Positions 17,301-20,300 of a stretch of 64,000 nt of DNA are shown piece by piece. The stretch is from an uncultured Muribaculaceae bacterium (GTDB taxonomy: Bacteria > Bacillota_I > Bacilli_A > RF39 > UBA660): positions 32,088 through 96,087 of the forward strand of contig CAZVUK010000001.1 of NCBI GenBank assembly GCA_964630225.1, given 5' to 3'. Within the stretch, counting starts at the first letter, position 1; each line of letters begins with the position of its first letter. Position numbers: made by a program.

Positions 17301-20300
17301 CTATTAAAAGAATTTTTTATTAACAAAAGATACTAATGTTTCACGTGAAACATTGTTAAATTATTTCCCGGGAAATAATTTAAGATAGTTAAGACATAAA
17401 ACAAAGAGTAATGAAACAAAGTAAAAAGCTTAAAATATAGGTTTTTAAAGTAAAAACATGTAAAAAACAGCTGCAATGTTTCACGTGAAACATAGATAAA
17501 TTATTTCCCAGGAAATAATTTAAGATAGTTAAGACATAAAACAAAGAGTAATGAAACAAAGTAAAAAGCTTAAAATATAGGTTTTTAAAGTAAAAACATG
17601 TAAAAAACAGCTGCAATGTTTCACGTGAAACATAGATAAATTATTTCCCGGGAAATAATTTAGAGGGAAAAACCAAAATTAAACTATTTAAATTATTTCC
17701 TGGGAAATAATTTAAATAAAAATAATCGCAACAACAGAGTATAAATTAAAACAATTCAATGTTTCACGTGAAACATTGAATTAATTTCTTTAAAAACAAT
17801 ATATAAATGATATAATATATTTGTGAGGTGCTACATGGAAACACAAGCGTTATATAGAAAATACAGACCGAAGAAGTTTTCGGATGTTTCAGGGCAAAAA
17901 ATAAGTATAAAGATATTAGAAAATTCTATTAAGAAGAATATTTTTTCTCATGCTTATATCTTTTTTGGTCCAAGAGGTACAGGCAAGACTAGTGTTGCGA
18001 AAATATTTTCAAGAGCGGTAAATTGTGATGATCCCAAAGATAAACCTTGCGGCATTTGCAATAAATGTCTAGAGACGCTGGGGAAAGAAGCGGTAGACAT
18101 TATAGAAATCGACGCCGCCTCAAACAATGGAATTGATGATATAAGGGAAATAAAAAATAAGATAAACCTTGTTCCGGCTTCTCTTAAATATAAAGTTTAT
18201 ATAATAGATGAGGTGCACATGCTAACAACGGGCGCTTTTAATGGCTTATTGAAGACCTTAGAAGAGCCGCCAGAGCACGCGATTTTTATATTGGCAACAA
18301 CCGAGTTAAACAAAGTGCCACAGACTATATTATCTAGATGTCAGTTAATCGAGTTTAGAAAGATATCAATTAGAGATATGAATACAAAACTAAAAGAAGT
18401 CGCTGAAAAAGAAAAAATCTTAATTAATGATAAAGCAATCAAAGAAATATCTAGAAGTGCAAATGGCGGATTACGTGATGCGTTGGGTATTTTAGATAAA
18501 GCTGTTGCATACAACCAAGATGAAGAAATAACTCTAGAAGATATTAAAGAAATAACGGGCAATGTTTTAGACAATGATCTCGATGAACTGTATAAAGATA
18601 TACAAAAAAAGAAAATTGACAAAGTTTTTGATAAGGTTAATAAATACTATGAAGATGGTAAAGACCTTGTTATTATAGCTGAATCACTGATTCACAAAAT
18701 GCGTGATTCACTTTTTGAAGAAGATTTAAGTGATTTTGACAAATCAAACGTTTGTTCTATGATTAAGAAATTTAATGAAACGATCGAGAAGATGAAGTCA
18801 TCTTCGTATCAAAAGGTTTTACTCGATGTTTTCTTAATTGAAATTATTAGAGATACAGTGTTTGATGATGAAAAAGAAGTTGAAAAGCCTATATCAGCAG
18901 AGGAATATAAAAGTCAGATAGCAGTTGAAGAAGAAACACCGGAAGATGAGCCGCAGAAGAAAAGCAAAATGGTTAAGAAAATAATAAAAATTAAAGAACT
19001 GAAGGAAGTTAGAGTAAACAACACCTTTGTTGATGCAAGTAAAATAATGAAATCAGATTTAATTAAAAATTGGACAGTGTTAAATGACTTCATGTTAGAT
19101 GATGAACTAGGTAACAATGCAAAAATGCTTATTTCAACCGAAATAGGAATTGTAAATGATGATCATATAGTGTTAGTCGTTGAGTACACAGGCACAGCCG
19201 AAGAAGCCAACGCTATGGTCGAAGAATATGAAAAATTAATTGCTAAAGCGTTACATAAAGAATATAAAATAGTCTTTGTCTCTAAAACGGAGTGGAAAGA
19301 TATCCAAAAGGATTACATCAAGAACAAAGATAAAGAATATACTCACATCGATGAAAGTGATATAATCTATGAACATGTTGATGGTGACTCAGAAATAATT
19401 GAAAGATTTACTGAATTATTTGGCGAAAAAAACATAAATATAAAAGGAGAATAGTTATGAATATGCAAGCATTAATGCGCCAGGCGCAAAACTTACAAAA
19501 AGATATGATGAAAGCAAAAGAAGAAATTGATAAGATGACCTTCGAAGGTAAAAGTTCTTTTGTTACTGTTATAGTCAATGGACAAAAAGAAGTTGTAGAA
19601 GTAAAAATTAATCATGATAGCGATATTGAAAAAGATGAGTTTGAAATGTTGGCGGATATGATTTTACTAGCTACTAATGAAGCAAACAGAAAAGTAGACG
19701 AGGAAACAGAAAGGAAAATGGGAAAATTTTCTAACATGATGCCTGGGATGTTTTAATGTATCCTGAAAGCATAAAGAATTTAATTGAAAGCTTTAAATTG
19801 CTTCCTGGAATAGGTAGTAAATCGGCAGAACGTATGGCGTTTCACGTTTTAGGCATGGACGAAGAAAAAACTACTCATTTGGCAGAAAGTATAAAAGAAG
19901 CCAAAGAAAAAATTATTAATTGCAAAGTTTGTAATAACTACAGCGAAAAAGAAGTGTGCAACATTTGCAGTGACAACAACAGAGACAAAGATTATTTATG
20001 TGTCGTTGAAGATAGAAAAAGTATATTTCTCTTTGAACAGCTCGGAACTTATAACGGTTATTATTATGTAATAAAAGATTTAATTTCGCCGCTAAACGGC
20101 GTAAATCCCGAAGATGTAGGAATAGATGAATTAGTTAAAAGAATCGAAGAAGAAAAGTTTAAAGAGATAATCATCGCTGTCAAACCCAGCATCGAAGGTG
20201 AAACAACAACACTATATATTAAGAAGATACTCGAAGGATTAAATCTTAAAGTAAGCAAGATAGCAAGCGGTGTTCCGATGGGGGCAGATATTGAATATAT

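Follow-up and report, generated by a model that had tools for sequence, protein, structure and literature searches.

An origin-proximal array of interleaved parS and predicted Noc-binding sites between tadA and dnaX in an uncultured member of the Bacilli

Chromosomal segregation by ParB/Spo0J relies on parS sites, which are origin-proximal in Bacillus subtilis and clustered in Caulobacter, Corynebacterium, Streptomyces and Myxococcus, and the centromere of the F plasmid, sopC, is formed by 12 tandem units of 43 bp, each carrying an inverted repeat that is bound by SopB. ParB and its paralogue Noc are textbook examples of DNA clamps that depend on cytidine triphosphate (CTP) and have insulated specificities, and in the model species their respective sites, parS and the Noc-binding site (NBS), are treated as separate in both space and function. 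This text describes an array in which the two types of site alternate, located in the gap between tadA and dnaX within a stretch of 64,000 nucleotides (the window) from an uncultured bacterium that was deposited as a member of the Muribaculaceae and that GTDB places in the Bacilli_A (RF39; UBA660; assembly GCA_964630225.1, contig CAZVUK010000001.1, positions 32,088 to 96,087). The array is interpreted here, with a probability of about 0.8, as an origin-proximal composite centromere, that is, a loading platform for ParB and a Noc-like protein in which four predicted parS are interleaved with four predicted NBS. This interpretation is based on what the sites are, on a predicted reader being encoded for each type, and on their conservation, discreteness, alternation, phasing and amplification.

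The locus resembles the known systems in several respects and departs from each of them in others. It shares with the chromosomal parS clusters the exact 16-bp consensus, the origin-proximal position, the presence of several sites and a ParA/ParB operon beside the origin of replication (oriC); unlike them, its parS are interleaved one-for-one with the predicted sites of a second protein of the ParB family, with a constant helical phasing, the composite module has undergone tandem amplification, and there is no parS in or beside parB. In the model species, NBS occur dispersed along the half to two-thirds of the chromosome closest to the origin (in Staphylococcus aureus at 41 loci; PMC5540599), and Noc cannot bring DNA to the membrane unless it has an N-terminal amphipathic helix (PMC8429893). 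The 16-bp NBS core, the rsmG-noc-parA-parB slot and, in the Noc-like protein, residues Q173, K179 and R201 together with the CTP-binding motifs are the same as in the Noc systems of B. subtilis and S. aureus; in contrast to these, NBS are concentrated here beside parS (in the window and in the origin-proximal flanks of its relatives), and the Noc-like protein lacks the helix, belongs to a family of 400–590 residues, contains a linker of low complexity and does not reach the NCBIfam cut-off for Noc. As in sopC, a centromere appears to have arisen by the tandem amplification of a unit with a palindromic site for a ParB-family protein, in variable copy number; unlike sopC, which has one type of site and one reader, the present array is chromosomal and has two types of site and two paralogous predicted readers.

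Identity and arrangement of the sites

A preliminary description of the window, made from the sequence alone, had reported near-identical units of 140 bp in the tadA-dnaX gap, and this was borne out: Tandem Repeats Finder delimits a 140-bp repeat at 17335–17662 (2.3 copies, 97% matches), the full units of which (17335–17474 and 17475–17614) are 98% identical. The first palindrome, the 18-mer ATGTTTCACGTGAAACAT, is present in four exact copies (at 17336, 17476, 17616 and 17759; shuffle expectation, 0.03), as had been stated, and there is no further copy in the window even when three mismatches are allowed; its first copy does overlap the stop codon of tadA (TAA, 17334–17336), by one base. The second palindrome, the 22-mer AATTATTTCCCGGGAAATAATT, also has four copies in the window, all of them within the array (shuffle expectation, 0.00). 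The number of copies had thus been given correctly, but not the number with a mismatch, since two copies are perfect (17359 and 17639) and two, rather than one, carry a central mismatch (17499, CCCAGG; 17691, CCTGGG). Degenerate parS or NBS with up to three mismatches were found nowhere else in the window, and both palindromes are confined to 17336–17776.

Judged by its sequence, the first palindrome represents the parS consensus, the centromere site of ParB/Spo0J, and the second is filed, on the same grounds, as the 16-bp NBS. The oligonucleotides GGATGTTTCACGTGAAACATCC and GGATATTTCCCGGGAAATATCC, printed as parS and NBS in PMC8429893, have cores identical to those of the window, and both cores also appear verbatim as oligonucleotides in PMC7383237. 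The view that the palindromes are binding sites of dimeric DNA-binding proteins, distinct from the signal recognition particle (SRP) RNA, therefore agrees with these published cores, while the idea that they are boxes of an unknown regulator came from their not having been recognized and has to be given up.

The array begins with parS-1 (17337–17352), an exact match to the 16-bp consensus TGTTTCACGTGAAACA that starts 1 nt past the tadA stop codon, followed by NBS-1 (17362–17377), an exact match to the 16-bp site TATTTCCCGGGAAATA whose start lies 25 bp from that of parS-1. The same arrangement, with the same start-to-start distance of 25 bp, is found in parS-2 (17477–17492, exact) and NBS-2 (17502–17517, with one central mismatch, TATTTCCCAGGAAATA), and again in parS-3 (17617–17632, exact) and NBS-3 (17642–17657, exact). 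The start of NBS-4 (17694–17709, with one central mismatch, TATTTCCTGGGAAATA) is 52 bp from that of NBS-3, and that of parS-4 (17760–17775, exact) is 66 bp further on. Each unit of the tandem repeat thus comprises a parS, 9 nt, an NBS and a spacer of approximately 95 nt that is unconserved between species, and the four NBS form a single cluster of 350 bp. On its upstream side the array is flanked by tadA, which encodes the tRNA adenosine deaminase (16899–17336, + strand), and on its downstream side by dnaX (17835–19454, + strand), which is followed by ybaB and recR.

When one genome per species was scanned for the parS core, at least 120 matches were obtained, and among the matches listed the 16-mer is present in every phylum sampled, including Streptomyces with 70% guanine plus cytosine (GC), often in clusters; the viral contigs gave the same picture. 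The adjoining NBS has a different distribution: among 240 parS loci listed from genomes and viral contigs, NBS accompany parS only in L039, which belongs to the same clade as the window, and in L104, where the NBS is approximately 6 kb away, so that among those 240 no locus outside the clade has an NBS adjoining parS. Clusters of four to five exact parS 16-mers were seen in IMG/VR contigs classed as viral (L136, L150, L151, L153 and L191), and these may be partition sites of phages or plasmids, or mis-binned pieces of chromosomes.

Conservation, phasing and amplification

The contigs encoding DnaX homologues with identities of 81, 70, 67, 58, 53 and 43% were located (L253, L254, L255, L256, L257 and L378), and the GTDB genome L039 was added to them. 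Every tadA-dnaX gap of these seven relatives contains both parS (two to four, nearly all perfect) and NBS (one to five, perfect or with up to two mismatches); that of L039, annotated as 'Bacillales bacterium Tb.RUG.93', holds a cluster of three parS and five NBS. Aside from the sites, the only 12-mers common to the window and the gaps of its relatives are the dnaX -10 element and low-complexity runs rich in A/T, and the ribosome-binding site of dnaX is shared as one 10-mer. The spacer of approximately 95 nt shows no conservation even in the closest species, L253, whose dnaX has an identity of 79% over its first 600 nt. Since the sites are kept while the intervening sequence drifts, these comparisons indicate selection on the 16-mers but none on the spacers.

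A metagenome scan for parS and NBS separated by 5–35 nt retrieved at least 120 loci, and in approximately 118 of the 120 listed the GC content is low (0.19–0.38) and the cluster is located, according to tblastn, in either the gyrA-tadA or the tadA-dnaX gap. Beyond these clusters, the origin-proximal flanks of the relatives (approximately 0.8 Mb) contain about five stray NBS and a conserved site inside dnaX. This internal site, a perfect NBS or parS, is located approximately 1.0–1.1 kb into the gene, in the variable linker, in L256 (3147), L257 (4201), L296 (1877), L293 (1870), L297 (3447), L372 (2806), L282 (2143) and others, and is missing from the dnaX of the window. Because the reading frame in which it is translated varies (ISREI, YFPGNN, VSRET), it is the DNA site and not the peptide that is conserved. 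L039 has an extra perfect parS (2387–2402) between gyrA and the SRP RNA.

The architecture of the clusters was evaluated over about 125 loci, which are related to one another and of which the metagenome part comes from the scan mentioned above. Counting sites with at most one mismatch, these loci contain 438 parS and 350 NBS, and neighboring sites tend to alternate, with 452 unlike pairs versus 152 like pairs. The two types are also discrete: with a template that allowed any base at the four discriminating positions there were 656 matches, distributed as 365 pure parS, 287 pure NBS and only four hybrids, which argues for two readers. The start-to-start distances between parS and NBS accumulate in peaks at about 26, 36, 46–47, 57, 68, 77 and 88 bp (the 25 bp of the window falls in the first), with a period of 10.5–10.7 bp and a phase of about 5 bp, equivalent to n + 1/2 helical turns. 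The spectral power of this signal is 38, compared with 8.5 for the 99.9% level of a jitter null, and none of 2000 null runs reached it; when a single spacing is sampled per locus the median power is 10.8. At 51–130 bp, outside the range selected by the search pattern, the phasing is also present (power 9.2, reached by one of 5000 null runs), and the parS-parS and NBS-NBS spacings of these loci show no periodicity (power of 2.1 or less). A separation by half-integral turns suggests that the two dimers would be placed on opposite faces of the helix.

Modules composed of parS and NBS have been amplified in tandem independently, the repeat unit measuring 72, 77, 104 or 106 bp and the copies numbering as many as 14 (72 bp × 4.5, 77 bp × 14, 106 bp × 5.5), and the 140-bp repeat of the window is one instance of this recurrent amplification. 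The exact number of copies is uncertain in the window and in the related short-read assemblies because several contigs break inside the array; three contigs of the same species (L003, L004 and L006) begin within it. One strain (L002) has one 140-bp unit fewer, that is, a single unit, and another (L001, 4900–5050) has a different first unit of 150 bp with two variant NBS. Neither is relied on here, given that k-mer assemblies can collapse tandem repeats, and the differences in copy number reflect either real variation among strains or assembly collapse.

The origin and the predicted readers

The window includes the origin region. GC skew changes sign at approximately 8 kb, and a cluster of DnaA boxes that marks oriC (7393–7977) precedes dnaA (8065–9414); on this basis, the array is situated approximately 9.4 kb clockwise of oriC, an origin-proximal position of the kind that characterizes parS. 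The opposite side of oriC carries yidC, jag, mnmE, mnmG, rsmG, a gene for a 500-aa protein of the ParB family (132–1634, - strand) and the start of parA (1–38, - strand, MGKIISLVNQKGG...), which runs off the window. In contig L251, an identical copy of the 500-aa gene is followed by ParA (260 aa) and then by ParB (287 aa), and the order beside oriC is accordingly rsmG-noc-parA-parB, the ORI cluster described in PMC8136486. Neither parS nor NBS was found in the noc-parAB operon regions of L251 and L380.

Compared with solved structures, the 500-aa protein is closest to Noc (7ng0, 230 bits, versus 190 bits for Spo0J), whereas the 287-aa ParB is closest to Spo0J (6sdk, 198 bits, versus 175 bits for Noc). 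It has been established that four positions (173, 179, 184 and 201 in the numbering of Caulobacter ParB) determine specificity, with the residues RTAG in ParB and QKKR in Noc, and that the two discriminating bases are recognized by Q173 and R201 as long as a permissive K is present at 179 or 184 (Jalal et al., 2020). At these positions the Noc-like protein of the window has Q-K-T-R and the ParB has R-M-N-S, which includes the parS-reading arginine at 173; both sets of residues are kept in a distant relative. The structure scores and the specificity residues of the two proteins suggest that the genome encodes a plausible specific reader for each palindrome, the 500-aa protein being the predicted reader of NBS. 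In the ParB orthologues of the clade (L251, 5893–6756; L380, 6472–7350), the equivalent of G201 of Caulobacter is a serine, and the recognition helix reads VGLL or IGLL instead of LRLL.

The Noc-like open reading frame starts at MQNEVVVQLHLDDIIPNRFQPR, in the alignment with Geobacillus Noc its residue 4 is opposite residue 26, and a longer reading frame is impossible. The N-terminal part is followed by a low-complexity linker of approximately 270 residues, rich in P, Q and E, in which there are conserved islands (VDIDKIR..DIN, NRFIPD and GQEVIGTGLLAGMPVI), and then by a Noc-like C-terminal domain of approximately 40 residues. It is a member of a large family of Noc-like proteins of 400–590 aa from uncultured Bacilli that start directly at the ParB N-domain, with neither an N-terminal helix nor a ParA-stimulating peptide; these proteins share the linker islands VDIxKIR..DIN, NRFIPD and G.EVIG.GLLAGMPVI, have Q-K-(T/S/A)-R at the specificity positions and score under the NCBIfam cut-off for Noc (286 versus 315 bits). 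The CTP-clamp motifs GERRxxA and ENLQR are conserved in the alignments of both ParB-family proteins. A 530-aa Noc-like protein (P0145, JGI data) may be linked to the array of L378.

Other features of the window can be mentioned briefly. The SRP RNA had been placed upstream of tadA, and Rfam agrees (16800–16890, 63.6 bits); the order in which a small SRP RNA lies between gyrA and tadA is common to the window, L039 and L378, while the order in Bacillus, according to the preliminary description, is tadA-SRP-dnaX. Between dnaN and recF, within the group of genes around the origin, there is an open reading frame of the ComK family (10724–11176, + strand; PF06338, E-value 1e-38), which is also found there in L253, and at 53445–53475 the ribosomal-protein leader L31-Firmicutes is matched with 33.4 bits, compared with an Rfam gathering score of 33.3.

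A proposed composite centromere and the alternatives to it

The mechanism proposed for the composite centromere draws on the established clamp biochemistry of ParB and Noc (PMC7053999, PMC8367383, PMC8429893 and PMC9449133). ParB dimers, once nucleated on parS and bound to CTP, would form closed, sliding clamps and spread, and the resulting partition complex would be moved by ParA and would recruit SMC. Noc-like dimers would nucleate on NBS in a similar manner and, since the centers of neighboring parS and NBS are n + 1/2 turns apart, the two proteins would probably occupy opposite faces of a short stretch of DNA, as one mixed nucleoprotein complex beside oriC. The 140-bp repeat would have originated by a recent tandem duplication of one parS + NBS module, through unequal recombination or slippage, a change that would add loading sites.

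Several observations weigh against this interpretation and have to be taken into account. The spacing statistics are drawn from phylogenetically related loci and, as regards the metagenomes, from the 120 listed ones, and the differences in copy number among strains come from short-read assemblies, which are prone to collapse or break repeats. The Noc-like protein has T and not K at position 184 and is without the N-terminal helix, and its activity may therefore differ from that of Noc. It reaches 286.3 bits against the NCBIfam model TIGR04285 (nucleoid_noc), below the cut-off of 315 (the ParB paralogue reaches 248.9), and its reading frame lacks the N-terminal amphipathic, membrane-targeting helix that defines Noc function; it is because of these last two results that the protein is filed as Noc-like and not as a demonstrated Noc. 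ParB, for its part, has a serine at 201, and some binding of ParB to NBS is possible.

One alternative is that the palindromes are bound by a regulator, as had been suggested at the outset, or by ParB and Noc as such, mainly in order to control the dnaX-ybaB-recR operon. The promoter then proposed does not hold, since TTGAAT (17776–17781) is 29 nt upstream of TATAAT (17811–17816) and is therefore too distant to be used as a -35; the better reading is a putative promoter at 17789–17816 (+ strand), formed by TTTAAA (17789–17794), a spacer of 16 nt and TGaTATAAT. With regard to this promoter, 13 nt separate the end of parS-4 from the -35 downstream of it, and between the last parS and the -10 there are exactly 35 nt in four cases (the window, L254, L255 and L256) and 33 nt in L257, even though the intervening bases differ, all of which would suit an operator. 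The geometry is not, however, a general one: the distance of 35 nt is restricted to near relatives of the window and L343. Furthermore, about one half of the related loci have the mixed cluster upstream of tadA and not of dnaX; where it precedes dnaX, the start codon follows its last site, which is sometimes an NBS, at distances of 31 to 170 nt; and the sites themselves correspond to the universal cores of parS and NBS instead of a locus-specific operator. A primary role as an operator is accordingly considered improbable, and, because the cluster often precedes tadA and that distance varies, any effect on the transcription of dnaX would be secondary, at most a side effect. The perfect palindromes within a tandem repeat, together with the terminator-like score of parS-4 on both strands, could also be taken as signs of a selfish or structural element, whether similar to repetitive extragenic palindromes (REP), BOX elements or miniature inverted-repeat transposable elements (MITE), a group of small structured RNA genes, as had also been entertained, or a series of terminator hairpins. 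This is scarcely credible. There are no copies elsewhere in the 64 kb, with up to three mismatches, and the sites occupy one syntenic locus across species, contrary to what was suggested when a dispersed repeat was envisaged; the 16-mers are invariant while the spacers have nothing in common across species except the -10 and the ribosome-binding site of dnaX; and the units contain, on the + strand, nothing that the scan scores as promoter-like. Over the array, Rfam 15 gives nothing but hairpin noise of the miRNA/sRNA type (22.6 bits or less, far under the gathering scores, also at E ≤ 1), and a scan for tRNA and tmRNA gave none. The terminator reading is itself weak, given that parS-4 alone scores, on both strands, and that any palindrome before A/T-rich DNA would do so.

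The two remaining alternatives accept the identity of the sites and differ in what is done with them. In one, the Noc-like dimers bound to NBS would act mainly as roadblocks or competitors that confine or slow down the spreading of ParB clamps from the adjoining parS, or the reverse, instead of contributing to a joint complex. The alternation of the sites, down to 25 bp from start to start, and the membership of both proteins in the family of CTP-dependent sliding clamps, as judged from the conserved GERRxxA and ENLQR, are in line with an antagonism of this sort, but the phasing is maintained up to spacings of about 90 bp, too far apart for steric blocking to matter, and the arrays often have parS at both ends, from which ParB could still escape outward; for these reasons a boundary is regarded as an unlikely main function. 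In the other, a single protein of the ParB family, such as a ParB with Ser201, would bind both palindromes and the second paralogue would be irrelevant. A deep mutational scan found serine at 201 among parS-specific variants and also enriched among those of dual specificity, most of which have T or S at that position, and the ParB orthologues studied here carry S; nevertheless, ParB lacks the permissive K or R at 179 and 184, a reader of dual specificity would tolerate hybrids, which are practically absent from the template matches, next to parAB there is a conserved paralogue whose NBS-reading residues are Q, K and R, and NBS are restricted to L039 and the distant case of L104 among the 240 parS loci listed. 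A single reader is thus very improbable.

With the composite centromere as the preferred interpretation, it is important to distinguish what is already known from what is not. The two motifs had been described before; what appears to be new, within the theme of ParB and Noc, is the interleaved, phased and amplified architecture together with its atypical reader, the long Noc-like protein without an N-terminal membrane helix. Literature searches found no prior description of interleaved parS-NBS arrays, an absence of evidence only, as subscription journals were largely outside their coverage. As read from the genomes and metagenomes compared, the architecture of the array is conserved, repeatedly amplified and phased in many uncultured low-GC Bacilli of the gut.

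The recurrence, in more than 100 lineages, of two types of site that alternate with a constant helical phase points to both proteins working on the same DNA, and the array offers a concrete substrate on which the co-loading, roadblocking or cooperation of two clamps can be considered. In practical terms, it is a sharp origin-proximal marker in the metagenome-assembled genomes of this clade, as well as a recurrent cause of contig breaks in them. The array also bears on the evolution of Noc and NBS from ParB and parS. A tentative proposal, put forward as a possibility that is more doubtful than the composite centromere itself, is that the Noc paralogue of this clade is a second centromere protein and not, or not only, a nucleoid-occlusion factor tethered to the membrane, and that the two-faced complex of ParB and Noc at interleaved sites may preserve, or may have re-created, an intermediate in the divergence, inside a centromere array, of Noc and its sites from ParB and parS.

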